A program made the translations under genes and the position numbers. 55,484 nt of DNA from Seison nebaliae. Taxonomy: Eukaryota. The notes below the pieces were generated by a model, which made no database searches, was not told the origin of the DNA, and was given only the letters and a program-made list of their open reading frames with translations. Shown here one piece after another: positions 2,175 to 55,484 of this stretch. How positions within the stretch are numbered: position 1 is the first letter of the stretch; each line of letters opens with the position of its first letter. The stretch is from NCBI GenBank assembly GCA_023231475.1, contig JALJEE010000507.1:1-55484 (forward strand), read 5' to 3'.

Positions 2175-3182
2175 TCATTTTTTCTCTTCTGCATATTGAT
2201 AATGGAGATCAGATACATCGTCATGTGATAATTTCTCCCATCCACTTTCCTTCATATGATAAACTAGAAAAATAATTAATTAATTAATAATAAAATATAA
2301 TTTTTAAAATTTTTTCAAGATAAATTCTCTAACCATGAACTGTACCACCACTCATGGCATCTCGATAAGTGGCATGATAAATTGCACGTCGTGCCAGATC
2401 ATGAGCCTCCTCCACTGTCAAATCGTTACGATGTCCTGAATCTAAAACACCGTATGCATATGGTGAACCGCTGCCAACGGAAAAGATATGATTCGTCAAT
2501 CGAGTTCCGTCACTGTCCACATAATAGAGTCCGGGGCCTCGTTTGTCCCAACCGACGATCATCGTTCCCATCGACAATCCCATTCCTTTGTAATTGTACA
2601 CGATATTCGCCAACATTTTCGAGGCAGCTGCCACTGAAATTCTTTCTTTATTCCTCAATTCATACATTCGACATTCCTTCGCTAAATATCTCTCCCAGAA
2701 ACTACAATCGGCAGCGCCGCCTGCCATCGTTCCTAACAAATACGGATTAATCTCAATCACCTTTTTCACCGTCTGCGAAGCTGATAATGGAAATGATGAT
2801 GGAAAATATTTGATAAGAATTAACCGATTAGACTTCCTGCAGTCGCTCGTGAATCAACCGCCACCATTACACCGTGTTGGAATTTGAAAGCTAAAGTGGT
2901 TGTTCCGTGAGCGAAATTGATTTTAATTCCATCTTTATTATGATCATTATATCTCTCCAAAAATCCTTTCGGCTTTTACGGGAAACAAAAGAAATTGAGA
3001 AAATGGAATGAGATAAAGAAAACATTAGCAATTGGTGGTTTCTCTACATTCGCAAATGAATCGATAGAAAGATTCATCATTTGATCGAGATTAAATTCAT
3101 TTCCATCTTTTATATCACCAATCAACTCCTTCTTCCAATCCAATTCTCCACGTCCCAATCCCAGAACATCTGCCAAAGCCAT
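2175..3182 (-). CDS. PSMB5: Proteasome subunit beta type-5, 4 exons
   Basis: Spliced product reads MALADVLG...propeptide, then [26 protein letters not shown]...[26 protein letters not shown]...SVGSGS...[22 protein letters not shown]...QYAEEKK*. Three GT-AG introns with donors GTTTTC, GTTAAT and GTTAGA. Confidence 0.97.
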
Positions 3183-3429
3183 AATTGAAATTAATTTGAT
3201 GGAGAAATTCAAACGAACGATTGAAATTCTTTCGAGAAAAGTTTGAATGAATAAGATTTTTTTTAATAATCTTTCTCATGAAAATTTTGTTTGAAAAATT
3301 TTTTTAAGATTATAAACGAAAATAAAATTCAAATTTTAAGCTTTTAATAAAAATTTAAAATTTTTAGCTTTCTACACGAAATTTCTTTCTAAAATTAACA
3401 AATTATTATTTTAACTGTTGTTGACGATA
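3183..3429. promoter_or_regulatory. Probable bidirectional promoter between PSMB5 and SMG1
   Basis: The divergent start codons (3182 on -, 3430 on +) are separated by only 247 nt of very AT-rich sequence; promoter function is inferred from geometry. Confidence 0.6.
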
Positions 3430-7785: not shown

Positions 7786-7820
<35 letters not shown>

Positions 7821-12709: not shown

Positions 12710-14065
12710 ATGAATAACGGAAGTACGATTAATGCCGAACCGAGTTCCACACAACTAAACCATCACGACGGTGTCTACTTGCCCAAGTGGTCACACAACG
12801 AAGATTTGGGTGCATTCTCCCGGAAAGGACACCTCACCTTCAGTAGTAGCAGTAACGGCACTTCAGCCGAATTAGAGGAGACTGAGAAGAAACGTTCACA
12901 TCGTTCTCATAAACGGCACGAGAAATTGCACAGACACAAACAACAACATGTCACTGAATTGGAGTCATCTAAAATCAGTTATCTCCAAGAACAACAAACT
13001 TATCTTCTTAGGAAATTGCATAAAGAAATTGAAAATCTTCGAATTGAGAATCAAGGTTCCTAACCCATATTTAAACTTTCATCAATCACTTAATACTTAA
13101 ATTTCTTTCCGGAAAGATCTCCAATATAAATTAGCAACTAAACGCGACCATCATAACTACGACGATGAGAAGCGAGGTTTCCTTTCTGAAAAGTGTGAAT
13201 ATTAAACAGTTTATTGTATTTGATAAGATTTGACAAGAATCGCTTCCGGATTGAAAAAGAAAGTGAAATATTTGAAGAATGATTTGAATACGCAACAGGA
13301 AACGATTAATAATTTAGAGGAACAATTGAAAAATTTGAAATCAACAGATATTCATCATTTGGATCATTCCACACAAACGAATCAATTAGACGATGCTGAT
13401 ATGAAAAATGAAGAAAATTTGACATTGGGTCAAATTCAATCAATCGATCCCTTATTGATACGAGTGAGTGACGGAAGTGTTAGAACACCAACCGACTCCG
13501 AAATGAAACGTCTCATTGTTCTCTTCTTTTGTAAACAAGAAATGATTGTTCGTTTGTTTTCAACAATTCTGTTCACTCTCTTTCTAGACTAATACAATTT
13601 CATCTTCAAATCCATCGAATAATCTACAACATTTGAGAAGTCGAGAAAATTTCGCACTCCCACCTCCCGAAGAATTGATATTGCAACCTCAACATGAAAA
13701 GTGAAAATTTTCAAAATTTTTTCTCATTTAATTATCGTTTAAGTTTTACTTCTGGTCATCATGTGAAAGGAGGAAATCCGATTTCATACCGTGCAATATC
13801 CTCTACAAATTTCGTGGAAATTGATCGGAAAGTTCCAATTTCTGATAGACGTGGCTCAAAATCGAAGACCGGACAAGCCATTTATTTACCGCCTTTACCT
13901 AATTCGTTCAATAAGAATTCGGTGACCGAACGGACGAAACGAATGAAACAAATTCATCGTGATCGATTAGCTCGAATCAATCCCACTTACCCATCACACC
14001 ATTCAGAGAATCCATCCTATCGACGATCGAATGATGATAAAGATCGTTTGAATAATTCCCAATAG
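12710..14065 (+). CDS. CCDC74: Coiled-coil domain-containing protein 74-like (CCDC92/CCDC74 family), 5 exons
   Basis: Exons about 12710-13055, 13117-13176, 13228-13517, 13588-13700, 13744-14065. KISYLQEQQTYLLRKLHKEIENLRIENQDLQYKL resembles the CCDC92/74 coiled-coil motif, and YLPPLPNSFNKNSVTERTKRMKQIHRDRL resembles the CCDC74 C-terminal motif. The intron 3 donor is ambiguous (13518 or 13548). Confidence 0.72.
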
Positions 14066-14324: not shown

Positions 14325-15146
14325 ATGTTAAATGACCAATATCTCCTTCAATTCCCACCAATCGACGAACATATTCATAAGAAAAGTTTTTATTGTTCTT
14401 CTTCTTCTTCTTCTTCTTCAACTTATTGAAAACTAAAAGAAAAGAAGAAAAAAGAGAAACGTCATCATAAGAAGAAGAGTCATAAGGAAAAGAAGCATCG
14501 TCATAAAAAAAAGAAATCTAAAAAAAGTTCGAAGAAAAGTTTGAGGGAATCTAAAATGAATAACGAAACATCAACTTATCAACAAAATTTTCCTAATAAT
14601 CCTGATCCTACACAATATCAATTTCAGCTGAATAATAATAGGACGAACAGCGGTCATATAAAAGAGAAAGGATTTAAAACGGAAATGGTTAAAGCTTTCC
14701 TTAACGGTTTTCTGGAAGAGAAACGGGAAAAAACGATAAGTTCACATAAACCTCAAGAACCGTTCGGGAATTCTGATGGGAGATATGTGGCAAATATTCA
14801 ACATCCTCCTAAATATATTCCGAATAATAAGGAACAATACCCACAAACTTTCGTTCCACAATATGAAAATGCGGAGAATCATCAATATGAAAATTTTCCG
14901 ATTTATCAACCGAATGGAAATGTTTCAAAAGAATTTCCTTCGAATAATTTGAATAATCAATATGAAAATCTAAATTGGTACGATAATAATCCGTACGGTA
15001 ATAATCCAAATGATATTTATCCGCAACAAAGACAACAGTCTAGAAAAGAAAAAGCGAAAGAAATGTTTATGAAAGCTAAACCTGGATTGGAGATAGCGTT
15101 AAGAACTGCTGGAGTGGCAGTTGGAGTTGCCGGTTTTCTAATATAA
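14325..15146 (+). CDS. Orphan low-complexity protein A (Lys/His-rich N-terminus, N/Q/P/Y-rich middle, hydrophobic C-terminal helix), 2 exons
   Basis: ATG at 14325; intron 14386-14439 (GTTTTT...AAG) joins in frame to ORF 14541..15146; ends KEKAKEMFMKAKPGLEIALRTAGVAVGVAGFLI*. Confidence 0.7.
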
Positions 15147-17897: not shown

Positions 17898-18654
17898 TTA
17901 TTGTTGATTAAATATTGTAGGAAGGTCGACTCCTAAACTTTTATAAAAACTTAATATTTCTGGATGTTTAATTATAAAATCCAAAGCTGAAAAATAAGAG
18001 GATTAAGTGAACAAGAAACGTCTGATAATTTACTAACCAATACAGCTTTTGGCTATATCGACATAACCTTTACAACATGATACAATATCACATTTATGCT
18101 TCTCTGTCACAGGAATATTATTCATGATATATTCTTCACCAATCCTAAAAAATAAATATAATTAATAATATACGAAGAAATAGAGAATATACTTCGTTTT
18201 AATGGCATATCTGGTGCATGTAGTGGCACCCAGAAAACCGCAATCTTCGTGTCCAACTTTCAGTTTGATATAATGAATATGAGTAACATGTTTAATTACT
18301 GTCTGTAAAACGATTGTATCGGTATTATTAAGATGTGAATGTGAAGCACAACAAAAATGTCTGGAAAAAATTGATAATTATTTCAACAGAAATTCTTTTA
18401 ACGAATTATCGCCTCTAGATATTTGGGACTTCAATCGTGCAACTTCTTCTTGTAGAATTAAAGGATAATCTTTCAATTTAAGTTGTTTATCAAGTTCTTC
18501 AATTTCATATCGTATTTTATCAACATTTTGCAGATTGGTCTAAATTGATTAAAATAATATTATTAGAAATTGCTGTAAACGAATAATTACAAACCACAAT
18601 TTTACATGTGATGATGGAAAAAGTAAATATTATAGCTAATAAGAAATGTCTCAT
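17898..18654 (-). CDS. Secreted EMI-domain (CCxGY) protein, 5 exons, 186 aa
   Basis: Exons 18654-18595, 18539-18403, 18360-18193, 18144-18038 and 17986-17898 splice in frame (561 nt): MRHFLLAIIFTFSIITC..., a coiled coil, then HFCC...CGFLGATTCTRY...KC..SCCKGYVDIAKSCI.... The Cys pattern and CCxGY motif are typical of EMI domains. Confidence 0.75.
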
Positions 18655-25700: not shown

Positions 25701-26378
25701 TGGATGCATACAATTCCGACGGTTTTTATTTTCCCCATATTTTTCCCGAATTATTTCAATTTATTTCAATTTCAGATTCTAAAAAGTTGAAATCGATGAC
25801 ACCATTATTACGATGTGTTTATAAAGGAAAGATGGAATTGGTTCGATATTTCCTCTCCAAGGACTTGGCATTTCAAGCCATCAATGTTGGTGATGATGTT
25901 GTTGGCGATACACCATTGATGGTCGCCATTCGTAGGAATGATCATTATCTTTTGAAAATTTTATTAAATTGGAAATTTAAAATCCGTTGGCATTATTTGT
26001 GGAAGAAAGAGGAAATTTCGCGTATTCAGAAGAAAATGGCGAAAGTAGTTCAAAAAAAAGCGAAATTAATTCATTTCGATTCAGCCACTAAACAACCGGA
26101 CGAAGATAAGGAAGATGAAGAAATGAAGAATGTTGAAAAGAATTCTTTACCATCAGATAAAGATGAAACGGAAGAGGAAGAAGAATTGTCAGAAGAAGTG
26201 TCAGAAGAAGAAGAAGAAGAAGAAGAAGAAGAAGAAGATGGAATTGTAAAACATAAATTTGGAAGTATGACTAGTAGTGAATTTGGTGGACATGATCCAT
26301 CTTATAAACCGAAAAATATTGATGATGATGATGATGAAAATGATGATGATGAAGACGATTATGATGATGAAGACGATT

Positions 26379-35400: not shown

Positions 35401-38400
35401 GTACACGATAACAACACAAGTCTCTTTTACCATTTCCGAATTGGAATGGAATGAAAAAAAGTCATTCCAATTAGCTATTTCTCTCGTACCCAATGGACGA
35501 TATATCGCTTTCCTTTTCGATCGAGAAATACAAACGAGAATTTTAGCTGCTCCTGTTCGTTTCGGGAAGACTTTGGAGAATGCCAATTTATTAATCGGTG
35601 TACGAAATCGAGAATATGAGACACATAAATTTTTGAATTTACCCCAACGACCTTTCATCATTGTGGAAGATGATGATTTGAATGAAGCAATACATCGATT
35701 CTATCAATATCCGTTTGAAGGTTATCTTCAACAATTATTCTTGTTTCATGGCGAATCGTTGAATTTCGATGATTTACAAAAATTAATCGATTGGAAACCA
35801 GAAAATCAATTTTATAATCTCATTTCAAAATACGAGACAATGAAAGAGAATGAAAAAGAGATTATTCTCCCGTTTCAAACGATCAATGATGATTTTTCAG
35901 AAAGTTTACAAATTTATCGTTTACGGATATTTCCGAACGGATGGAATGAAGAAAGTTTAAAAGAAATTAATGAGTTAAACGATTTCAATTTATTAATTTA
36001 CATTCTGCCAAACGATAATTCTTATGGGAATTTCTATCATAATTTGACGAATGTTTCGAGAAATATGGTTGAAGAAAATGAAATTTTCAATTTGACAATT
36101 CATCGATCTTCTTTCAAAGTGTCGAATCTCCCAATAAAAATATATTGGACAATTTTAACGTTGAACGATTATAATTGTATAAGTAATTGTATGGTGCAGA
36201 ATACGAATGATGATTTCGTTTCTTCTTCCGGTTTTATCGAATTTGATTTGAATGAAAAAGAAAAAGTTAAATTTTTTTCATCAAAAATTTAAAAGTTTTT
36301 TTAGAATTTAATTATAAATCCAATCAATGATTTAATACCAGAATTGAAAGAATCATTCATAATCTTATTTTCATTAACGGACAAGAATTTCATGTCAAAT
36401 TACCGAATTGATTATTCCCAAGAATTAATTAAGAAATTCAATGATGGAACCAAATCGATTCCATTCGATTATCCAATTTCTTATGAGAAAAATTTACCAT
36501 CGATTCGGATCGACATAGAAGAGAATGATTATCCGAAAGGAATTTTAACGTTTCTCGATAAAGAATCAGAAGAAGAATTGATGGAATTCGATAAATATTC
36601 AGGAAGTGATTTTGATAAATTTTTACAAAAGAATTTTGCAGATAATGATACTCCGATCGTTCTGGTGAATGAAGAAGATGGTTATGTAAAATTGACGATA
36701 ATTCGATGTCAAGGATCATTAGGTGACATCGAATTCGAATGGAGAACGGAAACGATTAATGAAAATTTATTAACAAATTTAAATAAAATGAAATCGATCG
36801 ATGGTATTGACGAAATAATGGCAGCATCATCTGAACGTCGATGGGATAATGGAACGCTTATCCTACAAGATTATCATGTTAGTAATAAATTGCGTTGAAT
36901 GGAACTGCACATGGTCAGTTGTCTAAATGTTTGTTCTAATAAACAGAAACAAATCGATATAATCGATAATTAAACGACTAGAAATGTTAAGAGAATTATA
37001 GTTAAATAGATTAAATTGAATTGTGATGATTTGATTGAGGAGCGACTGGAATATTGGACCATTTTCACTTTGTAATTCTGATATTCATTTTCATTCTCTT
37101 TTTTATTTCCATTCAAATTCTCATCACTCATTCTCTTCATTAAATTATCGTTCATTAACGATACATGTTGTGTGGCGGTGGCGATGGAAGTTTTCCTCGG
37201 AATATAAATTAGTGGAAATATCTGTTTCTCAGACGTTGTAGTTTGCGGAATTAGACTATAATCATTATTTTCTTCATTCTTCTTTTGAATATTCTTCAAA
37301 GGAATCTCACAAATAAATCGTAATTTTTGTAAACAGGACTCACTTCTCCAATAGAGATTCAATTTGTGTGACAAACACAAACAACGTCCAGTTGCGTCGA
37401 AAGTTTCAGGTGAATCTCTTCCATGGAAATTCCACCAATTCGACCATTCATCTCCATTGGAATATGGACCGGGAAACGATGAATATTTCTGACGATAAAT
37501 CCACATCCATGAATCAGCCTTCCTTATTCCTGACGTCCACCAATCTATCGAACGACTGTATCGTTGTTGACGTCGAATTTGATGTTGTGATTTTCGATTT
37601 TTTCTTTCTTTCAATTTTGGTCCTACAAAAAAATTAATTAAGAAAAAAATACTCAATTGGAAAACTTTTACGTTGGAGGAGATTCCATTGAAGGAAGTTT
37701 TGTTCTTTCAAATTCTCCACACTCACCAATTCACCATTTAACGACCAACATGCTCTTCGAGCTTGATAATAAGTTTCCGTCCATTGAGAGACGATGTAAC
37801 AGGAACCGGTAGATAAAATTCCGTTGAGGATATATTGTTTTGGAAAGTTGTTTTGGCCGATCGTTTTCAAATAATCTTCGCAAATATTTTCTTTGTTTTT
37901 ATCATAATTCTAAAGAAAGTAAAATTGTTTAGTAAAAAACTTTTAAAAATAATTAACTATATCTGTTAATTCTCTTTTAACAGTTCCGTTTGTAGATTGA
38001 TTATTATTTTGAGTAAGTTGTTCATTTCCCCTTTTCAAATGATTATTCGATCGTTGAACAATTTGATTTTTTAATGCTTCTAACTGTTCCGTTAATTTAC
38101 TTTCTTTATATTCTAAAACTTTCTGAAGTTCACCATTTACCGCTTTCGTGATAGCTCGAATGATTTTCGTGTGATCTTCCTCTGACAGTTTACGAGATGA
38201 TGTTGTTTGAGAGGAGGAGAATGAGGAGGATGATAATAATATTCGTAAATCTCTTGTAATCGAATCATGTAAATTTTCGATTGCTAAAACTGCATTAGTC
38301 TGATATTTATTTAAGTTCTTTGTCAATTCTTCTATTTGTAATAAGAGTTCGTCATTCTCTTTCTCTATTCTCCGTAAACTTTGTTTCATTTCTATAAAAA

Positions 38401-41400
38401 ATGGTTAAATAATTCTCTGAAAATGTTGTCTCGTCTCTCTGAAGCTCATGAGATTTGAGCTAGATTTTTATTATAGAAAATATTATTATTATTAACAATT
38501 TTATTGTTGTTCAATAAATCTCCATGGGAACTGGTTGTTATAACAACTTCATCATAAAAATTCTCTTCTCGATCTCTATCGAACTTATTTAGACATTCCA
38601 TTTATTCAACTTTGGAAATTCGTTCTTATTGCTATGAATCGTCCAACGACTGGTGTGGCACCAGGTACTGCTTCACGCCTACAAACGGCAAAACCTGGTA
38701 CTCGTGCAGGAAATATAACAACGGCGTTAATGGCTGATCGTCCTGTGACACGTGGTGGTCTTGGCGGTCTTAAGACTGCCATGGGTCCTGGTACTGGGGC
38801 GAATCGTTTAGTTCAAGACAAGAATTATTTTGTTAATTTAATTCGAGCTAAAACTGTCGACGCGAAAAATGAGATTGATCGTTTGAAAAAGGAGATGGTA
38901 AGAGCGAATGAAGATAATACGAATTACATGGCATATAATCGTCGTGCTGAGGAATTGACGAAAGAAGTGGAGAGTGTTCGAGGGAAGAAAGCTGATTTGA
39001 ATACCGTTGTCGATCGATTACATAGTAACTCGAATATTTCTGAATTGAAATCATCAATCGAAGAATTGAAACGGAAAATTGACAATGAAGAAAAAGAGAG
39101 TACACGAATAATTTCTCAACGAACTCGATTAGATGCGGCGGTGAATGAAATGCAGAATGAGATGGATGAATTGAATGCGAAAGAACAACATGCAGTTGAT
39201 CGTTTGAGTTATGAAGATCGACAGAAATATTTAACAATTAAAGAAAAGAATTCCGAATATACGAGTCAATTGACGACGATGTTTGGAGAAATGGAAACTA
39301 TTCGAGATGAGATTGCTGGTTTTATGGGTCGATTAGACGATACACCAGAAAAGAAGGAAGCATTAAATCTTTTTGACAAATTGAATGAATTGGAACAAAA
39401 AAAAGATTCGATGAAAAGTGACGCTGAACGATTTTCAGCTTTATCTCCAAAAGAGGAAGAAGAGAAATTATTGGCACAAGTCAAGAACGATAAAGTGGAA
39501 ATAAGTGGAATGGATGAAAAGTTTAACTTAAAATTTTTCATTGAAAAATTCAAAAAAAAATTTCAACTTTCCTTTTTAGGATTCGCTCAGTTCGAGCGGA
39601 ATTGAATAAACATGAAATGGAAGAGGAAAATGATTTGGATGATGACGGAACGGACGAGAAAGCCATTCGTCGTCGTTATGAGAAATTGCGTCGGGAAGAA
39701 GAGGAAATGGATCATTTCAATGGAGAATTTACTAATCGTCTACAGGACGCGACGGGAAATTTGAATCAAGCTCAACATAATGTGGTTCATTTATTGGATA
39801 TTTTAAGTCGAGTAGTTGAGAAGACGGATCGATCAGCAGCAGATGATGCGAAGAGTTTAATGGTGACAACAATCGAAGGAATGAATGATCAACTTCAATC
39901 TCTGCAACGCGATTTGAAGAAAATGGATCCGATGAAAGAGAAACTGAATGATGAATATAACGCTTTGGAAGGAAAGATCAAAGAGTATGAAGAAGAATTG
40001 GGAGATTATACTGACAACGAAACTATAAAAAGGAAGGCTGAAGAGAAGCGAGACAAACTAATAGAAGAGAAGGATTTATTACGAAAACGAAGAGATGAAT
40101 TTGTTCGAATGATCAATCAAGCTGAGCAAGATTTAAAACGTTTGAAAATTACTTACAATAACCATAAGATGACGAAGTCGATTGAACCGTTAGAGGAACA
40201 ATTGCAAGAACTGGAAGGGAAGAATTATTCACTACGTCAAATTATTGCTAATAAGCAATTGGCTACTGATTATGAGAAATATAAATTATCGTCGCTAGAG
40301 ATGGTGGAGGAACAACAGAAATTCTTACGTGAACATGCAGCTAATGCACCAGCTCCTGTTAAAGCAACATCATATTAACCTTTATATTCTCCATTCTCCT
40401 CCTTCTTCTTCTTATAAATATTTTGTCGACTATTATTGTTGTTGTTTGTGAAATTGATTTGAGGTGGACAATTGACGTGTTTGGGAATGATTTCTTTAAT
40501 AATCGTTCGACTTCGTCTTCCACCGTTATTCCTCGCGGCTAATAAGTGGGTAAATGACTTCTGACATTTCCCACCAATCTCGCGAACAACTAACGAATAT
40601 CGGCAGTCAACACCATCTCGAATTTCGAAAGTTTTGCCTTCTCTCTCATTCCATGAAGTTGATTCGATTCGAATCAGATAAATTGTGAGGAGTTGATGAA
40701 TTAGTAAGAGAGAATTCATTTTGAAAGAATAATCTGATGAGGAGAGAAAATGAGTAAATTTGGAAGGAGTGGAATGAGAATCGATTAAGATATGGAAACG
40801 AAGGAAAAACAAAAATAAAGAGGAAGATGGATTGACGGTTGATTCGTGTTCGACTAAAAATCATTGTGACATATCTGTAGATATTGAGGGGAGACAGCGG
40901 ATAAGGAGGAAATAGAAGGAAGTCGATCGATGACTTGATGTTTTGGCAAATTGTCGGTTACTGGTGGAGGAGGAATAGGATAAAACTAGTTGTTTTCACC
41001 ATCACATTCTCTCGCATGCACTCCTTAACAACAATGTCATGTCACTCACAACTATTATGTATATCATCATTGGTAGAAATACATCTACATATTAATTGAA
41101 TGATAAATGAGATGAAGAATTTTTTTGAGAAAATTTGTTTTACCGAACTACTATATTCCTATTACGCACTGTTATTAGTTGTATTAGAACTAGTATTGTT
41201 ATTATTTTCATTAGTTCACTATGTTCTCATCAATCGATATACAAATACTAATATTATGTTAGACAACATTATATAATTCTCTTTTTTTTAATAATTTCCT
41301 CTTCTTTCTTTTTTCCGTCTTGTTCGACTGACTGTTTTTTCCCCGACTTGTGAGTCTCATAAATATACCGCCAACGTTAACTGCCATAGTGCAAATTGAA

Positions 41401-44400
41401 ATGAAACATTCTTAACTTCTCTAACCTGTGTAACAATCCATCTCCAATTAAGAATTTTATGAAGAAACAAAGTAATATTTCGTTTTCAATCGAAGGTTGT
41501 TCCTCGTTTTCCTTAATGCATTTGAAGTGCAGAAATGAAGTTCTCATATCGAACTAACTTTTGTTACAGACAATCAATGTTCAAGTTGAAATTGTTCAGG
41601 ATATCCGGATAAAATTCGATTTACTTTTCCTAATTCTTTTTCATTGTCCTCCTCCAACTTCACTCACGTTCGTTCAACGACACAACAACAACAGCAACAA
41701 ACACGTTCGGTCGTCGAATAGTTAGGAAGTTTCGATACATTAAATTCATTTAACATTCTACATCCTTTCTCCTCAACACACAAGTGAACATATCAATTTG
41801 TTAAGTGTAAATCTATTGATGGATATTAAGTTAACGAAAGACAACTGTTACGTCATAGGAGAATAGCACGAAATTGATAGTGCACATTCTGTGCATTTTC
41901 GATGCACAAACTGTTATATGGTAAGACTTCGTTATTTTTCTTATCTATTCATTCTTCGTTTCCATGTTGCGAATAAGAGTAATAAGAAAACTTCGAGAAT
42001 TATATGTTGGTGAATGTCATCTTATTATTCTCTCCAAGTCACTGTCACGGGTGAAGGAAATTGATAGATAGAAAGTTGTTTATCTTCATTTCATAAACTG
42101 ATGAGAGAATCCTATAATTTTTCTTCGTCACTTATTCCAATAAACTTCATCCTACGAACAAATTGGAGAAAAGTTAAAATGATTTTTTTTTGAAAAGTAA
42201 AAAATAATTTCTTATTGTCGATATTATTGATAGAGAACAAACATTTTGGAATGCGAGGAAAAAGTGAAAGAATTAAAGGAAAAGATTTAATTAACTGAAT
42301 CCATTCAATGAATTTCACGTCCAGCTATTTTGAGGAGTGAACTTATTTATTTATTAGTCGGTAGTGAATACCATGACACCAAACAATCTATTATTTATTC
42401 CTTGTGCACATGACGAACATACGTGAATGTGATGTCTAGTAATGATTGGTAAGGAAATGAAAACCACAAATTATTTGTTAGCGGATGGATGATTGGCATA
42501 GGAAATATTCATTTGGAACAAACATCAGCATAATAGAAGCGGAAAATTTTCATCTGAAAAATATTGTGAAAAGAAGAAAGACAATACATTAATAAGTCGA
42601 AACAATTAAGATGATGCGTGCGTGGGGAGGCATAAGTGTTCTTTCGTCCATTCTTCTCAATTTAGCACGCTATCTCATTTAACGATAACAATAAATATGA
42701 ATTGAATTAGACGAATTGGCTGATAAACGATTCGACTCATTCAAAATAACACCATTGACCTTTGTCCTCTCTTTCATCCCCTCTGATTTATAGGCGGCAG
42801 CTGGTGAAATGATATTGGTCAATGGCGAACGGTTAACGCAAATTGTTATACCGTTGAATGACGACGATATTACCGAGGGTGCCGAAGCATTTACTGTTCG
42901 CTTATATGCTAAATCACGTAAATTATTGCACGCTTCAAAATATGAAGTTACATTGAATTGATTTATGAGAATTACATTGAAATTCCTCTAGATAATCGTC
43001 ATAATACGACCGTCGGATGATGCATATGGTATATTCCATTTAATAGTGGATTGTCATCAATCAACTACTCGCTGTGAGGAAGACGAGAGAATTGTCAATG
43101 TGACCAATTTGTCTCATGCCAAAATGAAAGTTTGTCGATTCTAAATTGAATTTAAAAAAAAAGAATTTGTTAATTTCATGTTAATCGAGATAATCACATA
43201 GATTATTTCCCACAAAATATTTCAATTAATTTATTTATCAATTAAATAATCAAGGTGCGACGTAGTCGTGGAAATTATGGTAATGTCATCATAAATTGGG
43301 AAGGAAAATTAATCAGGAAATTCGAGGAATTGCCTTCATCTCAATCAATTTCATTACAAACGATTAGTGGCACAATCGAAATTCACCACAATCGATGGTT
43401 GAGTGATGATAATATAATTGTTCCCTCGTTCGCTGATGATCGACCACATCTCGAACATATTTGGAGAGTATCAATCTATCCGTCAACCACAAACTCGCCA
43501 TCATCGACGATTGGAAGAGTTAGTCGACGTACAACATATGTTCGAATGAATTCGCAATTATATCAATCGTTTTCCTCGAGGCATTCGAGTGAATTGAGAT
43601 ATGATGAAATATTGGATGATGACCGATCATTCGACGGATATTTATCGGATGGTGAATTATTTATTGTCGTTCAGAAGAGTGAGAATGCTTATGGAATATT
43701 TCAGTTCAGCATCTCACCGTCTTCTCTCAAATCAACGAATTTATTAGACACTTGGTATCCACGTTCTCCATTAATGAATGTATTCGAAAATCATTCTCAA
43801 GGTTGTCACAACTTCTTGTCCTTTTTTATCAATCAATTTATCTTGTCATTTATTTTTCAATATTTGTGCATGTCATTCTCATTTTGACATTAAAGCAAAT
43901 GTATGTGTCGAGAGAGATGGGGGAGCATACGGTGTAGTAGATGCACAGTTAGAAGTGACATCATTCGGTTTAAATTTATTCAACTTATTCTCTTTATCTC
44001 TCAATCTCCTTCTTAATAGATACTAAAAATTACAATTATTATCGTTATCCTTCCTATATCAAAATTGCCCGTGAGAACATCGACTATCAACTTCCGGATA
44101 ATTTAGTATTACGGTTCGAAATTCCTTTTCAATTTCATTCTAACAATTCTCCCACATAGATTCAATCGACACGTCAAGGTGAATTGTTTAACAATTCAAA
44201 TAATCAATGACGAAGAAAATGAACTAACTGAAATAATTTGGTTCAAATTATCCAACGTTCAATTAATCCAATCAGAGAATAGTGAAATTATTGATCGTTT
44301 GTTTATCATTCAATCAAAAATATCATTTCTTCCACAGATGTCCCATCAATAAATGGTAGTTCGAGAACAATCGGAATTTCGTTAGTTGATGATGATGAAA

Positions 44401-47400
44401 ATAAAAAATCAAATTCTATTCAAACATATCTACGAATTGATTTGAGAGAAGATAACGAGAAATTCTCTTGTAATTTCTATCCAATCTCTTATCAGAAACT
44501 CTTAGCCAATTTACGTTACATTAATCATCAAACTGATGAGAGAAATGGTCAATTTAAATCGATGGAAAGTCAAATAAATTATGTAAATGGAAATGAATGG
44601 GGAAGTTCTTCGGAATGGAATATCCAAATGAATTATGTCAATTCATTGAATGATACATATGTTCCATTATTTTGTATCGACACAAGACACATCAATTCCA
44701 TAAATTTCACAATTTATCGATTATCTCAACAGAAAAAAAGAGTTAACATTTAGAAATTTTTTAAAATTCTCCACATTTTCCAGGTGAGCGTTCTCATATT
44801 GATTTATCCTACAGTCGTCAATTTGAACAAATCCGAGAATAATCAATCGTTAATCGATTTTGGAATATTTGGAATTGATTATTCAATCGATTCACAAATA
44901 GTCACATTGAATGAAAACGAGAATGAGAAAACATTTGCAATTAATCTCCTCAAAGAAACGTATGTCAATCATCGAATATTTGACATCAAATTTAATTCAT
45001 TAAATTCCTCAAATTTCCAATTCCATTCAAATTATCTTTTACACAATACTTTCTACAAGAACCAAATCGAAATTATCGGAAATAGTTTTTATCGATTTCT
45101 TCTCAAAAAAAATACGGGAACAACTTTCAGTTAAATTATTCTCAACCAATTTTCATTTTAAAAATTTCATTTTTCAGAATTTCATTTTCTACCCTCACCA
45201 AATGGAAATCTCAAAATTTTACAATTGACGAATAACGAATTGAATTTTCGTATAATACGTCATGGAGTTATCGAAGAATTGCAATCAATTCGATGGAAAA
45301 TTTCTACTGATCAATCTAATTCAGAGATTGAATGTCAAAATTATTTCCAGAAAATCGAAGGAATTTCCATATTTCTTTCTGGCGAATACGACCATTTAAT
45401 TCAAATAAAAACAAATAGTGAATTATTTGAAAGATTAATAGTTTTCTTTTTTTTGTGAATAAAAAATTCCATTATATTTGTAGATATGTAAAATTGAATT
45501 GATTTCCAATTTCGTTCAAGGTGATCTAGAAACCCTATTCATAATTTTACCATTTCAATCGATTAATGAGGAAATATTTCAAATTAACATAAATCGATTG
45601 ATTCTGAATGAACATAATGAAACAATTGAACTATCAATTAATGATATAAAGTTATTGGAGAATTTCTTTTTAACATTTATTAAAATTAAATTAGTAAATT
45701 TGAAGGGAAATTACTCGTCAATTTTAAATTGTCGTCAATTTCAAATTCATTCCAAACTCCTTCAGTTTAGTGAATATCTTTTCATAATTCAATCTATATT
45801 TTTTGGACAGTTTGCGGAAGAAGGAAAAGATTTTTTCAACGGAACTTTCAACAAAATATTCAATACGACTGATCGAATTATATTGGAAATTCCAATTGTA
45901 TCTGATGAAATACCTGAAATTGACGAGACTTTCGTCTTCTACGTTCATTCCATATATTTCATTCCGAACTTTTTATTCTATTATGAACAAGAAACAAAAT
46001 TTCAAGACATATTAAGAGATTGTTAATTTTAATTTCGATTTCATCAATTTATTATCATCTATCAGATCTTAGAATGGAATCATATGATTTATCTGATTGT
46101 ATGATTCATCATAAAAATTTCAAGTGTTTTCCTTTGAAATATGAAGGAAATTTATCATTCAATTTAACAATTAAAGAGAATGATAAATCTGAAGGATCAT
46201 TTCGATTGGAACCACGAATCCTTAAAAATAATAAATTAGAAATTCTTAATTCTCAAGATTCCAATAGAACTTATTATGGAATGGAGAACAACCAGAAGCC
46301 CTTGCAATTTTCTGTGAAACGATTAAGTTTCTCTTTTTATGCAATTCTATCATTTAATTAATAATTTTATTTTCAATAGATTCATTCTTTGGGAAAGTTT
46401 TCATCAAATGGAACATTTCAAGTGTCATCAATTTCACGGAAGATATCAAAAATGATGAAGGAATGATCATTTTTGAGGAGAATCAAAAAGAAAAATGTAA
46501 AACTAATATTTTCATCTTTTTACAAATTATAGTTTGTTTCCAATATTTGTATCAATTAAAACTACCTTGTCCATTTACCTTCCCCCCTACTCTTCTAAAC
46601 TTTTTGCTATTTTAATCGTTTCGTTAAAAATTATGAATTCCTTTTCTGAGTCAATTCAGGTACACATTATTTAGATCACCTGAAATATCATTAAAATATC
46701 TTCCTTGTTCACCACCTGTTTGAACTTTTGATCCGAGTGAATCTAAAATATATTTCTCCTAAACTCCCCTAAATGGTAACCCATTAATTCTAAAATCATC
46801 TTCATCCTCTTTAATTCCTTTAGGAATTTTGAAAAAATAAATTATTAGATTTTCGATATTAAATTGATATTATCGATATTAAATTATATAATTTCACAGA
46901 TTTTTCAATAATACTCAAACAAGATAATATTGCGGAATATGAAGAGGAATTTATTTTGAATATTTTCAACTTCTATTCAAATCAAAGAGAAGATTATATT
47001 AAAATTCGGATATTAGCAAACGACGGAATTTACGGAAATGTCACTTTTTCAGAAACTGATACAATTCTTTCATTATATGAAGGATTCAATATCGCAATAC
47101 CAATAATTCGACCGATCGATAATAAAATACTAAAATCGTTGACCGTCATTGAAATCGAGTGGGAAGTGAATTCAATAAATGTTACGACGATTAATATGGA
47201 GAATCATTTCGAAACTGTTTCCGGAAAAGTAGAATTATTATCCGTTTAATCTTTAAAATTCGTTGAATTTTTTTTGAAATCTTCTTCTTTAGTACATGAA
47301 TGAGTCGTATATAATATTATCAGCGATTGATGATTCTTTACCAGAGTTAAGTCGAATGTTTCATTTAAAATTGACATCGTATCGAATGAAAACGTTTAAT

Positions 47401-50400
47401 AATTCGATATTTGACAAATGTTTAAATTGTGTGAATGAAGAAAGTTAAAATTTATAAATAAAATTTAAATTTTTTTTATAATTTTAGGTTATTATCATTT
47501 ATCGGAACCGATAAAATTAACTAAATTGCCGATACGATTAATAATCGATGAGAACGATTATCCTTATGGATTGTTCGGATTCGATTTGGAACTTTTGACA
47601 ATTGAAGAGAATGTCGATAAAGTTTCGATAAATATCCATCGGTATCATGGCACATATGGGAACGTGTTGCTCAATATTGACATCTGTCCACCAAATGTCT
47701 TCAACGGAATAATTGCAAAAGAGGGAAATGATTTTTCATTTATTTCGAATAATAAAAGAATCGAATTCAAGACAAATGAACGTAATCATTCTATCATTCT
47801 TACTATAATCGATGATGATGAAATTGAAGACAATGAGGTTTCTATTAATTAATTCAACTCATTTCTCGTTGCAATGTGAGTGAATTTGAATTGTGTGTTT
47901 GTGTGTGGAAAATAAGAATTTGATATGAATAAATCGAATGAATAAGTTCAGTGAATTGCATCAGATGATGAAATTGCGTAGCTTCTCAAATTTTTTCTTA
48001 CTCGAATTATATGTGTAACTGCGGTTTTCACACCATCTACCATTCCGTCTATGATAATCAGTGCAAATTCCTTCCAGTATTTCTTACGTTCCATTTATTG
48101 ACTTAGCTGTTTGACATTGAAGCACATTGTTCTCTTTCGACATCAATTCCTTTCAATCATCATTCTCACATCATGGAACTTTTTATCAATTCTTTTGGCC
48201 ATACTCCTATCTCGTCAAATCACTTCATTTTCTTCTTTCAGTTCCTTTGTCTCCAAATCAATTATCTTACAATCCAATCATTAAATGGTACAGGCGAGAA
48301 GTTTATTGATAATAATCGATTATTGATTGAAATTCAAGATAATGATATTCAACGTCAAATAGTTTATGTGAAGAATGAATATCAGAAATTGATTAGTAAA
48401 GAAGGAAATGATGTGGTAGTGCCAATCCATCGTAATTTTGTTTCAGTTCAACCAATTTATTTATCAGTCGAAATCTCATCTATTTCTACCACTGATGAAA
48501 TAGATTACAAATTAAGGAATAAAGTTCTATTTTCATTATTTCAAATAATATCTCATATATTTCATGTTAGTTCCTGGTATTTTCACCAGATGTAACAGAA
48601 ATTTTCCTGGAAATTAAAATCATTAAAGATTCAAAGGCTGAATGGTTTGATCATATAATTCTGGTCATAAATTCAACTTCAGATAATTTCAGTTTGATAA
48701 ACAACACAAGTTTTCTAATTTTCTTTCAATTTTTAATTTTTAAAATTTGCAGTTAATATTTTTGTTGAGCCGAACGATTTCCCTTGTGGCGTCTTCACTC
48801 TTCATTCACTCGAATTGAATGAAAGAGATTACAATGAAATAGAAGGTGAAGTATTGATTGAACGAACTGTTGATGAGTGGTGTCAATTATCGATCGATTA
48901 TTCGTTCGTCGATAATCGGAATAAAACTGCACATGAATTTTTTCCATCAAATAATCTCATAAATTTTCGAATTGGAGAAAAGAAAAAGAAAATTAATTTT
49001 ATCTTCAAAAATATGGAATTCCAACATTATTTTCTGAGATATTCTGTGAAATTTATTCCAATTACAATTCCCATACCGATTTCCTTATCGAAAGGATTTC
49101 CTGGTATTTCTATCCAAGATTTTGATTATGGAAATTGGTTCGGATATGAATTACGAGAATTAGAAATTCCTCTCTCTAGTTTGAGAAAAGAAATTTATTC
49201 TTTATCGTTCTCTCCTAATAATGAGGAATTTATTTCATTTAATGGAAATGAAGCACAGATTGAGGGAGAGGCTCGTCTACCTCTTTATCGGCATCATCAA
49301 TCTTTTTGGATCAATATCAAATTAAATAAACCGAATTACATATCGTCTAAATTGTGCTTGATTCTCCAGAGTGAATTAGAGGAAATTGAAGAAAGTGACG
49401 AACCTCAAAATCTTTTATTCTTACCAATTACTCGAATGGTCATCAAAAATGAAAATCAGAAAGAATTATCTGAAATTTATTCATTAAAAATTCTTAATAA
49501 CAATTATTTAATAATTCATTTATCAGGCAAATTAAATTTTTATAAATGGAATAATTATTCCTTCCAATTCACCACCACTATCGACTTCAATGACCAAGTG
49601 ATATCCATAAAAGAAATCGGAGGATCAAATCAATTTTTAATTTACTCTCAAAATCATCATCGATATCAATTAAATTTATTCGGAATGAATAATAGTCATT
49701 GGATATTGAATGACGTGAAATCGTTCGATTGTAAAATGGTTTGGGAGGTGGATAAGATAAAATTAAATTATTTTATAATCGCCTTTGATTCATGTTCGAA
49801 GCAAATTGAAGTTATTATTTGAAAAAAAAATTTCTAATATTTTTTTTTAGTGGTCCAAATTGGAAAATGACAAATTCACCACCTTCAATTTACTCGATAA
49901 ACAAACGGATATTATATCAATCCAAATGATAAATTTAAATGATCTTTCATTCGTCATTTTTGTCTATTCCAACAGCAACGGAACTGAAGGAAAAATGAAG
50001 TTTTCTTTTTTTCTTTTCAAACAAATTTTAGACAACAATCGTTTTAGTTTTGATTTATTCGAAATCGATTATAATGAAAAGAATTTAAACGAATTTTTGA
50101 TAACATCAACTGAAATCGATGAAGTGACGAGATCGGATTTAGTTCAAATGGAACAACTTCAGTTTTTACTTCTCTTCAATGAAGAGAGGAAGATTTTAAG
50201 TGTCTATGAAATCGATCTCCAAAATGAACATATTCAAATCAATTTCATCACTTTCTTTACAGATATTATTCATTTTCAAACATTTATTCGTAACAAACAA
50301 TTTTATCTTTTTGGAAAACTTGAAAAATATTCAGTCTTGTACAAATATGAAGAAAAAGTAAAAAAATTCATATCTCTAAAAACGTTCGAATCATTTAAAC

Positions 50401-53400
50401 GATTTTTAACAATTTCAATCGATCATAAAGTTTTCATCAAATTTTTTCTTCAAACTTAATTCTTTAACTCTGTGAAAAGACTACTGTGAAAGTGACGAAC
50501 GATTTTCAACAATCGAGAACTAATTCTGAAATGATGGAAATTTCAATTTTGAAAAATTATAGTTTACATTCGGGATATCTTTTCAAGAAGTTTTAATTAA
50601 AATTCATTAATTAAGTATAAAAAACAATTTTATTTCGAAGGAATTTATTTTTGTCATCCGAAATGGCTGAATTAGATATACCGATTAATATTTTACCATT
50701 GCCAATTTATCAATCAATTCGAATAGTTATCAAAGAGAATGATTCAATTTTGAGTAATTTCATCAAAGTTTCAAGTTGTCGCAATTGTCTAATGAAGGAA
50801 GGTGCTGATATGTCAATATCGACAAGATTGGGAAATGTTTTTAATAATGAAATGTTGGAAGATAATATGGTGGGATTAGACGCAAAAGACAGAAAGATTT
50901 ATGTTTCCACTGATTTCTTTACTAGAGATCGAATGGAATATATTGGAATTCCAATAAGAATCGTCAGGTGGAATTTGAACGATGAAAAAGAGGAGATAAG
51001 AATCAGATGGAAACTTTCTTCAATTTCTCCTATCAATTTAGAGAATTCGATTCAATTGAAATTAGAAGGAAATACAGAAATTATGAGAAAAAATGAAATT
51101 GAGAAAATTTTCATTATTTATCTCAAAGATTTGAAATTGGATGGAAACCATGAGGATTATGTTCCATTTCGATTTCTGAGAATTATATACGAATATTATT
51201 CAACGAACCATAAGAAAATATCTGCTGATAATAACCAACAAATAATTTTGACACCATTATACAATCCAACTGGAGTGTTGACGTTAAATAGAAATTCATT
51301 TGTTATTCGTCGAATTTTGGATGAAACCGTCTCGAAATCCGTAAATGTTGAAGTGACCATATATCGAGATCAGGGCACAAAAGGAAATATTCAAATTTCT
51401 TATGAAATATTTAATGAATTAGAACCGGCAGATCGACGAGAAAGTTTTGTAACGATGATCGATAATCAGAAAATTATCAATTTGAAATTTCAATTACCAA
51501 TCGATAAAATTTCGAATTTGAACGAAAAGGATATTTTCTATAGACTAACTTTAACCAATGTCCAATTAATATCAAAACAATCATCGAATGAAGTGCCACC
51601 AGATATCTTGAGGAATATTTATGGTGACGAATTTATCAATATTCATTTATTGACGGAAATTGATACGATTCAAATGTCTCAAATAACTTTCTATGAACAA
51701 ATGGATATCGTTCATGATTTTAATGATGCCATTAGTTTTTCATTGAGAAAAACGGGTAATAAGAAATGTGAAATCATTTGGATGATCGTTGGAGAGAAAA
51801 GTGAACGAATATTCTCAACAACTAACAATTCTATTACAATGAGAGAAATGGATAAAAATTATCATGTGGATAACATAAAAATTCTTTTAAAAAATGAGTC
51901 AAATATTTTCCATATAAATCTTTATTCACTTTCACCTTATTGTCAAATTGGGAAATATTCGATGAAGTTCCGAATAAAACATGGTAATTATAAGGCTGGA
52001 ATATTCTCGTTGAAATATAACAGTAATCGACAAGTGAATGAAGGAGAGAAAGTTTATTTATCAGTCAAACGGATATCGGATTTCAATGGACGAGTTAAAG
52101 TAACTTGGAAAGCGGAACCTGCAGAATTGGTGAATAATTTGATGGGATCATTAATTTTCGAGAATGGAATCAAACTGGTTTATTTTAATATAAAAACTGA
52201 GAATTTGAAAAAGATTGATGATAATCGACGGATAAGAATCGAATTAATCGATATTCGAATGATGGATGAAGGTAGTAATCTTATTCCGTTAATTGACGAT
52301 GTTGAACGATATGTTTATGTTCCATTAACGAATGATGATGGATTGGATGATATTATTTATATTCCATATAACCGACGAATGATAAATTATTACATGGAAA
52401 ATAGACAACTTGAAATTTCGATAAAACGAGGTGCAAATTTATTAAATATAAATCCGTTAATGGTTTATTGGCAAATATCACCAGCATTATATGTGATCAA
52501 TGAAAATGATGGTCATTTCATTTTCAATTCTAATCAATCTGAATATTCCTTGATGATAAATGTCACTTCATTCTCAAAAGAGTTTCTTGAGACAATTCTC
52601 CAATTTCAATTGATAAAAACCGAACCGAAAATATCGAATGTGTTCGATAAAAATCTACAAACAATTCCCAATTCTCGAACGGGAACTATTGCCCTAAAAG
52701 AGAATGTGTCTGGACAACTTGTACAATTTTCATTTAGTGAATCCATCATTCATTCATCCACTAGTTCAATAATGGTGATATCGATCGAAAGAACAGGAAA
52801 TATTTCCAATTCGATTATTGTCAATTATGAGAATTATGATGTGACTGCTAATGAGAAAGTTGATTATATGTTAATGCAGTCAACATTGACTTTCGGAAGA
52901 AATGTGAAGAAAAGTTTTTTAATATTGAAAATTCTTCATTTTCCCCATCAATTAATTCAACGACAACTTTACCTCCTTCTACGACTAATTTCCGCTTATT
53001 CCATTGAAACGAATACGCCAATTCAAATTGGAAAATTAAATAATCATCGAATTTGGATTTCATCTTTATCTGAATCTTCTCCAATTCCTTCAACTACTTC
53101 AATTTATTCAACTACTTCAACTACTTCGATTTCTTCAACTACTTCCACTAATAATTTTCCGTCGACAACGAGTGAGGTAATTGAGATAGAGAAATTGTGG
53201 ATCATCCAATTTGAAACGAGATGTTACGATTCGATTTCTATAGCAAATACGGATGATACGACTTGTATTTATGTAGAATTGGCTGCAACTCGAAATATTA
53301 AATTGACACATCCCTATGTCCATCGACCCATTTCTTTATCCGTCGTTTTAAGTACACAAGCAATCGGTGATTCATATGCTGAAACGATACAGTTACCCGA

Positions 53401-55484
53401 CATCGAATTTCTTATACGTCCAACGTCATATAATAAACGATCTTATACATGTATTCGTGTGGGGAAGATGTCGGTTCCAATCACATATCTTCATTTATAC
53501 CCGAAGAATTTCAATGGATATCATTTGGGTTTGAGAATCTGCAAATTAAATTTAATGACAACCAAACTATCAACTTCAACTAAACCGATTACTTTTCCAC
53601 TTTCAACTTCATTATTCACATTATCTTCTTCAACTTCATCAATTTTTGCTAGAGCGACGGTTGAATTGTTACCGCCGTTCAATTATGTTGTTCGATATTC
53701 AGTCGCTTCTTTCCAATTTATAACGCCACAAATAAAATTGTCTTCATCTGATGATTCATCAATTTCGGTCTTCTGGAGAATATTTTCTAATAATCAACAG
53801 AATAATGAAATAGTTAATCGTTTATTAAACTCAATTTTTCCCGATGGTATCGAAGGAATTATTCGATTAACTCAACTTATAGAATCATTTCAAATTTCCA
53901 TTAATATTCTACCAAGCTTACCTCATTCGACATATTATTGTTTTCAACTCCAATATCCATATAATGGAAATCAAGACATTTCTATAGTGCCAAGAAGTAA
54001 TACTATCACTATCGAAATTATTAATGATAAAATTATCAGTCAAGAGAATATTTATCGATTTGCAATTCCACATCCCATTATCGAAGGGAAATATGTGGAG
54101 AGTAATGAAATTAACGAACCAACCACATCTCCAATGAATGTAACATTTATGATAATACGTGAAGATAATTCGTGGCGAGAAAATTTCCTGTTTTGGAGAA
54201 TTAGTTGTTCCCAATCCATATCATCCTTCATATTTCCCACTAGTGGTCAAATTATTTTCCATCCTAATGATATTTATCAAAATTTCACTTTTACTATTAT
54301 ACCCAACGATCTACCTCAATTATTTACCAAATGCTCAACTTTATTATTGACATCCAATCAACATTTATCATCAAAATTACTTTTTTTTATTCAACCAAAT
54401 GATGATCCTCATGGAATATTTTCCATCAGTTCCGGTTACATTCTCATCGCTAATCCCGATGTGGTTCACTATGATAATTTGAGGAGTGTAGTCATCAATT
54501 TCCATCGAAGTAAAGGAGTGTTTGAAGATGTGAATGTTCTTATTGAATTAACTACAAACAATGACAAATTGAGGATGAATTTCCTGCAAAATACAAATAT
54601 TACATTTAAAAATAATCAATCTGATGTGTCAACAATTATTGATATACCGAATTCGATAATCTTATATAAAAGTACATTTATTAGAATTTTTATAAAGAAA
54701 GTGGAATTGTCAAAAGTTGAGAATTTCACTCAAAATTATATTCCACCAAAAATATCAGAGAGTAATGATTCCCTTATAATTTTTGTACCAAATCTAGCTT
54801 TGAATCCAGAAATCTCTTTCTCCAAATCTAATTTTCTCTTGGAATCTGATGATACAACGAAAACCTATTTGAAAGTAAATATTACAGTGAAAAGAGAAGG
54901 AGCTTTCGGTTGGTCAAATATTCTCTGGAAATCATCTTATTCTCTGGGTATTCCATCTGGTGTCGTCAGATTATCCTCTAGCGAAACACTGAAACATTTC
55001 ACTTATAAACTTCTTCCTTCCATCGATACAGTTAATTTCTTTAAGAAAAGATTTTATTTTTTCCTATTTCTAGAATATTAAAATTAAAATCGATTCCGAA
55101 TTTTCCCATTCACAATTTCCTCATATTGTGACGGTGGATTCGACAACAATTGAGAAAAATGGCATATTGGAAATCGAAGAAGATAATCGATTAATTTTCG
55201 TTCCGATATCGAATAAATATGAAACATTCAATATTCGAATGAGAAGAATATTCGATTTAATTGAAGAAACTGGAATCGTCATCGTTTCATCCATTCCCAA
55301 TATCGTGAGAAAGATTGAATTGAAAAATTTTAAGAAAAATGAAAAAACACAAATAGTTGCCAATGTCAATCTGAACCCATCAACGAATAACGGAATAAAA
55401 TCATTTTTTATTCAATTTGCCACAACGAAAAATCAGAATAGTGCTCGAATTTCTCGAATTTATAATCAAACCGAAATTCGGTTT
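29448..55484 (+). CDS. ADGRV1: ADGRV1/VLGR1 (GPR98)-like giant adhesion receptor ectodomain, about 37 introns in the window, 3'-partial
   Basis: Signal peptide MILFFLLITIKELTS. Many Calx-beta repeats (DDxxxExxExF and I.I.xNDxPxG motifs). A LamG/pentraxin-like segment at about 35030-35800 (FEGYLQQLFLF), EAR/EPTP-like repeats at about 49400-50500 (FYKWNNYSF, SVLYKYEEKVKKF), then more Calx-beta repeats. This domain order matches ADGRV1; the GAIN/7TM region is not within the window. Confidence 0.8.
36970..40719 (-). CDS. Secreted or GPI-anchored coiled-coil plus C-type lectin protein, 4 coding exons, nested in the ADGRV1 intron
   Basis: Exons 40719-40380 (signal peptide MNSLLLIHQLLTIYLIRIEST, CRYSLVV...C motif), 38391-37958 (coiled coil), 37909-37666 and 37622-36970. 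CTLD motifs: GSCY...YYQARRACWSLNGELVSVE...WWTSG...WSNW...CLCL...W...C...FICE. Ends in a hydrophobic tail FNLIYLTIILLTFLVV*. The exon1/exon2 join AAA G|AA ATG is phase-compatible. Confidence 0.78.
38518..38547. promoter_or_regulatory. Tandem RFX X-boxes upstream of IFT74
   Basis: ATCTCC-AT-GGGAAC (38518-38531) and the perfect palindrome GTTGTT-AT-AACAAC (38534-38547), 87-116 nt upstream of the IFT74 ATG. Both fit the 14-nt X-box consensus of ciliary genes. Confidence 0.8.
38634..40378 (+). CDS. IFT74: Intraflagellar transport protein 74, 2 exons (38634-39520, 39580-40378)
   Basis: N-terminal RPTTG...RLQTAKPGTRAG...DRPVTRGGLGGLKT...RLVQDKNYF is characteristic of IFT74, followed by a long coiled coil (EEEKLLAQVKNDKVEISGMDEK|IR...). 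Intron 39521-39579 GTTTAA...TAG. Confidence 0.92.
53059..53172 (+). repeat. Ser/Thr-rich coding repeat (TCAACTACT units), mucin-like linker in the ADGRV1-like protein
   Basis: SSPIPSTTSIYSTTSTTSISSTTSTNNFPSTTS in ORF 50651..55081. Confidence 0.7.

Follow-up and report, generated by a model that had tools for sequence, protein, structure and literature searches.

What recognizes the start of an intron when nearly every intron in a stretch of animal genome opens with GTT? Such donors (5' splice sites) are a minority among animals according to published consensus statements, and they are fairly common in nematodes and perhaps in bdelloids. Here, we analyze the introns of a 55,484-nucleotide stretch of the Seison nebaliae genome (contig JALJEE010000507.1 of GenBank assembly GCA_023231475.1, positions 1 to 55,484 of the forward strand, hereafter the window), where 50 of 53 predicted donors carry U (T in the DNA) at intron position +3. 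The letters around these donors suggest that adenine faces +3, and we tentatively favor a changed 5' end of U1 small nuclear RNA (snRNA) as its source. Seison lives on marine crustaceans and is grouped with rotifers and acanthocephalans; its genome of about 46 Mb has compact genes, and about 35% of metazoan BUSCO genes are missing from it (PMC8351084). Of all splice signals, donor motifs are reported to be the best conserved across animal phyla, and to be nearly monophyletic (PMC3033335).

Four deposited proteins were mapped to the window by exact translation, with splice motifs ignored, yielding 41 junctions with GTT donors at 3/3 in PSMB5, 2/2 in SNEBB_004495, 10/10 in deposited protein P0244 and 25/26 in P0245. 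Junction 40358 (GTT) was dropped because it probably reflects a gene fusion (IFT74-like to ADGRV1-like), which leaves 39 of 40 GTT, and our own models of three further genes, each without internal stops, added 13 junctions (11 GTT, 1 GTG and 1 GTA). Together, these 53 introns start with GTT in 50 cases, GTA in 2, GTG in 1 and GTC in none (Wilson 95% interval for GTT 85-98%). Kept outside the set were the fusion junction, the donor of a 5.9-kb intron (36878, GTT), a candidate donor at 19217, six uncertain calls (5 GTT, 1 GTA) that the blind parser described below placed at the ADGRV1-like gene's 5' end, and two of its calls in small genes near 14.4-15.2 kb (both GTT). We infer the junction positions themselves from reading frame, homology and gene models.

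Away from donors, T follows GT at 37% of coding sites (336/909), 42% of intergenic sites (223/536) and 44% of sites in short introns (12/27), and T follows T at 55% of intron positions; against this last figure as a ceiling for chance, 50/53 has a P of ~2e-10. A free +3 position would give GTC at about 10 donors (~19%), and none was found (P 1.5e-5). The GTT pattern is far above chance in the window, and U at +3 is positively selected. An initial annotation, made by eye, had counted GTT at 56 of 59 introns; our own set reproduces this with the same three exceptions (GTGAAA at 13701, GTATAT at 18192 and GTAAAA at 46497) and contains the donors it had named in PSMB5 (GTTTTC at 3023, GTTAAT at 2824 and GTTAGA at 2333, minus strand), in the PARP gene (six, all GTT) and in the IFT74-like gene (GTTTAA at 39521). 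The comparison of +3 T with intronic background that it had proposed also comes out above background. The introns lie in the following features, where a slash marks the boundary between exon and intron:

2264..3023, minus strand: PSMB5 (SNEBB_004488), 3 introns (3023-2973, 2824-2781 and 2333-2264), all GTT; deposited protein mapped without splice motifs
13056..13743, plus strand: CCDC92-domain gene (Pfam PF14916), 4 introns with donors at 13056, 13177, 13548 (GTT) and 13701 (GTG); own model
13701..13743, plus strand: first exception, donor AAA/GTGAAA of a 43-nt intron; placed by reading frame only
17987..18402, minus strand: cysteine-rich gene, 3 introns with donors at 18402 (GTT), 18192 (GTA, second exception) and 18037 (GTT); own model, frame open over all junctions
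24955..25775, plus strand: introns of an ankyrin-WGR-PARP gene, 6 donors at 24955, 25093, 25223, 25387, 25534 and 25722, all GTT; own model
30669..36304, plus strand: first part of an ADGRV1-like Calx-beta gene (SNEBB_004494), 10 introns of 39-67 nt, all GTT; deposited protein P0244 mapped, 10/10 also blind calls
36878..42793, plus strand: probable intron of 5.9 kb within the ADGRV1-like gene, with donor CAT/GTTAGT and 2 nested genes inside; joined by homology
37623..37957, minus strand: nested gene SNEBB_004495, 2 introns (37957-37910 and 37665-37623), both GTT; deposited protein P0123 mapped
39521..39579, plus strand: intron of a nested gene that we take to be IFT74-like, donor AAA/GTTTAA; deposited protein P0245 mapped, also a blind call
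42947..55073, plus strand: second part of the ADGRV1-like gene, 24 introns (23 GTT, 1 GTA); deposited protein P0245 mapped, with homology across junctions
46497..46899, plus strand: third exception, donor AAT/GTAAAA of a 403-nt intron; the only feasible donor, with 50 ungapped homologue alignments crossing the junction

The deposited models come from gene prediction, which may itself have learned GTT, so three controls on junction choice were run. In the first, using reading frame only, all GT sites within 24 bases able to join an AG in frame and without stops were listed at 40 junctions; 39/40 introns are demanded by a stop or frameshift, and at the 23 junctions with a single feasible donor that donor is GTT in 22 (P 1.4e-6). 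The second was a parser that ignored +3 and learned its acceptor and length models from the deposited introns; it made 55 calls (43 GTT) and recovered 34/40 deposited donors. Swapping +3 left recovery at 36 of 40 for A and for G and at 37 for C, and recovery as good as this means that the parser has no GTT bias; two of its 12 non-GTT calls are real exceptions and the others are unverified. The third control was homology: of the 36 junctions that P0244 and P0245 contain, 13 are crossed by ungapped alignments to ADGRV1-like proteins (12 GTT, plus the GTA at 46497; 5 of the 13 depend on a single weak match), and motifs across introns 2 and 3 of PSMB5 are present in 109 and 91 of 119 homologues, so that 14/15 homology-spanned junctions overall are GTT. 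The dominance of GTT is independent of choice by eye. The initial annotation had regarded the junctions in conserved proteins as fixed by frame and homology. In the PARP gene, however, 11 homologues aligned to exon interiors only, none fixing a junction, and the intron at 25722, though in frame and stop-free, was picked by eye; for the IFT74-like intron the frame permits two donors, one GTG and one GTT.

Around the invariant GT, the exon end is rich in A (phase-aware exon background, n=53), with 31 at -3 (19.8 expected), 34 at -2 (19.6) and 30 at -1 (19.0), giving the pattern AAA/GTT. G at -1 occurs at 12/53 donors (10.1 expected), a share above the 12% that precedes coding GTT (P 0.04), and the 23 frame-forced donors have A at -1 in 18 cases (8.1 expected) and G in 2; with -1 mostly A and rarely G, the usual C9:G-1 pair with U1 is not in use. 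Downstream, the initial annotation had seen no consensus from +4 to +6, which is nearly right: +4 and +6 follow intron composition (T at +4 is 49%, equal to background, vs 94% at +3), and only weak departures from a dinucleotide background appear, namely A at +4 (19 vs 11 expected) and loss of T at +5 (14 vs 25 expected). Its estimate of about nine donors with G at +5 agrees with our 8/53 (2.6 expected from intron composition), and among GTT sites alone +5 G shows no excess (8/50 donors vs 18/88 decoys). Neither -1 G nor +5 G is present at 36/53 donors. The commonest start is GTTAA (12/50 GTT donors vs 6/88 decoy GTT), and GTTTG begins 2/50. Strong exon ends accompany 1/8 of +5 G donors and 27/45 of the others (P 0.02), a seesaw that, like the +4 and +5 signals, is weak and carries a P value without multiple-test correction.

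These introns are mostly 39-54 nt long and 4.7% G, with U-rich starts. Their acceptors are T-rich from -13 to -5 and end in TAG (24), CAG (19) or AAG (10). All 41 mapped deposited junctions have exactly one GT-AG solution, although deposited models may have been restricted to GT-AG; the minor (U12-type) donor GTATCC was found at 0/53, and none of seven branch-point patterns occurred more often than in shuffled introns, so that no branch-point motif was detected. The ordinary major spliceosome likely excises these introns. After AG, the exon opens with A in 26/53 cases and with G in 9, and its second base is T in 35 (17 expected).

Pairing with U1 was then compared between the 53 donors and 222 nearby decoy GT sites, taking the standard U1 5' end from PMC9311317. 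In the normal register, standard U1 does not separate donors from decoys (area under the receiver operating characteristic curve (AUC) 0.55; mean duplex energy -1.9 vs -1.9 kcal/mol), and donors are not distinguished by complementarity to it (AG/GURAGU), with 36/53 lacking both -1 G and +5 G; together with selection for +3 U, this supports the changed donor specificity that the initial annotation had proposed. Shifting unchanged U1 by one base raised the AUC to 0.68. Among 136 combinations of single U1 changes and registers, A at 8 in the shifted register (6.1) formed the most pairs on donors, ahead of A at 6 in the normal one (5.8), and the best discriminators were U at 11 in the shifted register (0.77), with A at 2 in that register and A at 6 in the normal one next (0.74). 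Outside GTT, the fit relative to simulated background was z 2.9 shifted, 2.1 normal and 3.1 for A at 6 with U at 9. All of these register and variant fits are small, were made on the same 53 donors and are confounded by U5 and U6. An Entamoeba-like U1 (A at 5 and 6) was rejected, fitting outside GTT with a z of only 1.1. An Rfam scan of the window returned 0 RNA families, including 0 snRNA genes.

The base at +3 is met first by U1 position 6 and afterwards by G44 of U6 (PMC11732430). As a reader of +3, G is disfavored because it would accept C and GTC is absent; the 0/53 count (P 1.5e-5) speaks against both G44 of U6 and G at U1 position 6, one of the two U1 changes that the initial annotation had offered. 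With C excluded and U nearly fixed, the partner is therefore most simply adenine, and the donors suggest that adenine faces +3. Three arrangements would place it there: A at position 6 of U1 in the normal register; unchanged U1 shifted by one base (A7:+3, U10:-1 A); and a shifted U1 with A at 8, which would remove the mismatch at +2.

Our preferred explanation, held tentatively, is that the U1 5' end of Seison has changed so that an adenine faces +3, as in Entamoeba. A, rather than G, would then read +3. Position 6 would have become A, perhaps together with U at 9, and pair in the normal register; alternatively, position 8 would have become A on a helix displaced by one base toward the intron, a form that would pair with A/GUUAA, the most frequent donor in the window. 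The A-rich exon end could be held by U5 loop 1 (UUU), U6 would contribute little, and the remaining information might come from short length, a U-rich and G-poor intron body and a pyrimidine-rich acceptor. Entamoeba is the only lineage with +3 U found to have a known U1, and that U1 carries the matching change (bioRxiv 10.1101/2022.06.08.495308). U5 loop I reads the exon end via UUU (PMC8163875), which supports the U5 step, and the seesaw between exon end and +5 G is expected for ordinary U5 and U6 (PMC11732430). A more speculative extension is that Seison may be the first animal with a rewritten donor code, AAA/GUU, in which a co-evolved U1 5' end, possibly shifted on every intron, would replace both the -1 and the +5 G contacts, by which the two donor classes of other animals are defined.

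Several points weigh against a changed U1. The standard U1 end persists in most lineages whose donors are atypical, namely yeasts, Giardia, Trichomonas, Thecamonas and Mamiellales (bioRxiv 10.1101/2022.06.08.495308), and in the tunicate Fritillaria (bioRxiv 10.1101/2025.08.15.670264). The best U1 variants, fitted to the very 53 donors they explain, pair weakly (mean -2.3 to -2.8 vs -14.2 kcal/mol for consensus), and their discrimination by energy is poor (AUC 0.52-0.67). A at 6 alone leaves -1 A unexplained (exon side z 0.8) and is out-discriminated by two other shifted variants; the shifted form predicts +6 G, found at 1/50; and donor sequence cannot separate A at 8 from unchanged shifted U1. 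The seesaw and +4/+5 signals enlisted here are also the weak, uncorrected ones.

Instead of changing, U1 could have ceased to be decisive, with relaxed or protein-driven recruitment (TIA-1/Nam8-type proteins, U1-C or LUC7) and +3 U chosen later by an altered U6 ACAGA box, by Prp8 or by snRNA modification; we regard this as possible but unlikely. Pairing with U1 is weak in all registers tried, the intron starts are U-rich in introns of 4.7% G, and TIA-1 brings U1 to weak donors before U-rich tracts (PMC9311317). In Fritillaria, the donors and m6A are altered although the U1 end has stayed as it was (bioRxiv 10.1101/2025.08.15.670264), and the roughly 35% of metazoan BUSCO genes missing from Seison (PMC8351084) point the same way. 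U-richness, however, picks no single position, and here +3 is 94% T while +4, at 49%, is background; an unchanged U6 would set G44 opposite +3 and accept the C that is absent. If U1 proves standard, the donors are still striking, with almost no pairing left for it.

It is doubtful, in our view, that standard U1 binds one base further into nearly all introns, aided by changed U1 proteins, through U10:A-1, C9:G+1, a mismatch at +2, A7:U+3, U6:A+4 and U5:purine+5. A single event would cover +3 U, the missing GTC and the replacement of -1 G by A; the gains in AUC (0.68 vs 0.55) and in fit at positions other than GTT (z 2.9 vs 2.1) fit such a shift, as do -1 A at 28/50 and GTTAA at 12/50 GTT donors, though U5 and U6 could yield part of that signal, and shifted registers are known in mammals (reviewed in PMC9311317). 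Yet +6 G occurs at 1/50 GTT donors vs 7/88 decoys, the shifted score barely distinguishes donors among GTT sites (AUC 0.57, P 0.08) where the normal register does better (0.66), -2 is an A that G11 does not read, and the duplex is very weak with +2 mismatched.

It is very improbable that the junctions are partly wrong, with predictors and readers preferring GTT and the real donors lying elsewhere: junctions were placed from sequence, at least one deposited model is probably a fusion, and the +3-blind parser called GTT at only 43/55 and missed 6/40 deposited donors, but the single-donor junctions (22/23), the unbiased parser and the homology-spanned junctions (14/15) all stand against it. An unconstrained +3, with GTT arising from T-rich introns and avoidance of TpA (seen at 0.60 of the expected rate, both window-wide and within introns, with T after T at 55%), is hardly credible and is excluded for the window by the 50/53 and 0/53 counts given above; TpA avoidance may have eased a move from GTA and cannot explain it. 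Least credible of all, the introns might be copies of a GTT-carrying, intron-creating element, as uniform short lengths (mostly 39-54 nt) would allow, but the 49 short introns compared resemble each other no more than their shuffled versions do (top pair score 14, vs 11 in a single shuffle), and a second GTT follows the acceptor in 2/53.

The deposited proteins SNEBB_004488, SNEBB_004494 and SNEBB_004495 all belong to the contig of the window, which has a G+C content of ~31%, low TpA (0.60), high CpG (1.37) and high TpC (1.49). The CCDC92-domain model has 386 codons and 0 internal stops, and all 4 of its donors were called by the +3-blind parser, with one additional call discarded; its GTG donor at 13701 overlaps a TGA stop, so that the unspliced form encodes a shorter protein and the spliced form a longer C-terminus. 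A Pfam scan of one exon of the cysteine-rich gene gave 0 matches. The ankyrin-WGR-PARP model (19708-29113, plus strand), assigned to its family from homologues, has 3031 codons and 0 internal stops, and 5/6 of its donors were also blind calls; at ~3030 residues, the protein exceeds most homologues (2000-2900), and its deposited counterpart was absent from the search results, perhaps because of a length limit. Upstream, the GTT site at 19217 has no frame link that we found.

For the 5.9-kb intron of the ADGRV1-like gene, five in-frame joins were scored by homology, and the one adopted led narrowly (35.4 bits vs 29.6-33.9). The donor of this intron, GTTAGT, equals the standard donor altered at +3 alone, and its two nested genes lie one on each strand. 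Deposited model P0244 stops just inside this intron, and P0245 fuses the same-strand IFT74-like gene to the second half of the ADGRV1-like gene; these split and fused models are probably an annotation error. Two introns of 403 and 404 bases (46497-46899 and 47838-48241) stand out from the usual 39-70, and the first has a rare GTA donor. Elsewhere, in intron-rich surroundings, an intronless frame of 2884 codons (3415-12069, plus strand) encodes a PIKK-family kinase with PI3/PI4-kinase and FATC domains. A head-to-tail repeat with a unit of ~12-13 bases occupies positions 1-120 at the contig start, two Asn/Gln/Pro/Tyr-rich frames with 0 Pfam matches lie at 14430-16243 (plus strand), and a short Gly/Met/Pro-rich repeat frame lies at 17065-17520 (minus strand).

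A literature search found no animal case of GTT donors and no paper on Seison or rotifer donor motifs, within a search that could not reach logos in figures or most subscription journals. In the available parts of the Seison genome paper, introns are mentioned only regarding gene compactness and splicing terms are absent from two supplements (PMC8351084); the available part of PMC10125929 has nothing on donors, and that of a nematode study describes T-rich introns with no figure for +3 (PMC1557818). A metagenome scan with PSMB5 gave 80 loci, nearly all intronless, 6/80 showing a gap or a further segment. Most known cases of transformed donors come from microbes with few introns (bioRxiv 10.1101/2022.06.08.495308). 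The initial annotation's suggestion of an undescribed spliceosome specificity goes too far, since Entamoeba is known to have GUU donors and a U1 that evolved along with them (bioRxiv 10.1101/2022.06.08.495308); what seems new here is that an animal has a transformed +3 U donor and has lost -1 G and +5 G besides. An intron-rich animal with nearly all donors at +3 U and -1 G and +5 G mostly dropped is a natural experiment on who reads +3. Its donors bear on the joint change of signals and snRNAs across thousands of introns, and they are relevant to gene prediction in Seison's group.

Seison and Entamoeba share a near-universal +3 U in GT-AG introns (bioRxiv 10.1101/2022.06.08.495308). Entamoeba is an intron-poor protist with a strict GUUUGU(U) donor, +5 G kept (97-98% GUUUGN) and a fixed branch point (bioRxiv 10.1101/2022.06.08.495308), whereas Seison is an intron-rich animal in which only GTT is fixed, +5 G is at 15%, exon ends are A-rich and no branch-point motif is detectable. 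Measured against the Entamoeba-type hexamer GUUUG(U), Seison matches at +3 (50/53) and not beyond it (GTTTG 2/50, +4 T at background). Among mammals, shifted-register sites are a rare class with +6 G as their hallmark (GTTAAGT), unlike Seison, where GTT is the rule and +6 G occurs at 1/50. Seison donors resemble the shifted-register sites of standard U1 (PMC9311317) in their GTT start and, through a signal that U5 and U6 could in part produce, in -1 A and +4/+5 A. Exon-side strength and +5 G are anticorrelated in Seison, as they are between the U5-type (AG//GUNNN) and U6-type (NN//GURAG) donor classes (PMC11732430, PMC9803359, PMC8163875), and 36/53 donors have neither -1 G nor +5 G; therefore, most fit neither class. 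Fritillaria borealis is also an animal whose major spliceosome copes with altered splice signals, there across the whole genome, but in that species the terminal dinucleotides are altered and the U1 5' end is conserved (bioRxiv 10.1101/2025.08.15.670264), whereas Seison keeps GT-AG and alters +3 and the exon end.

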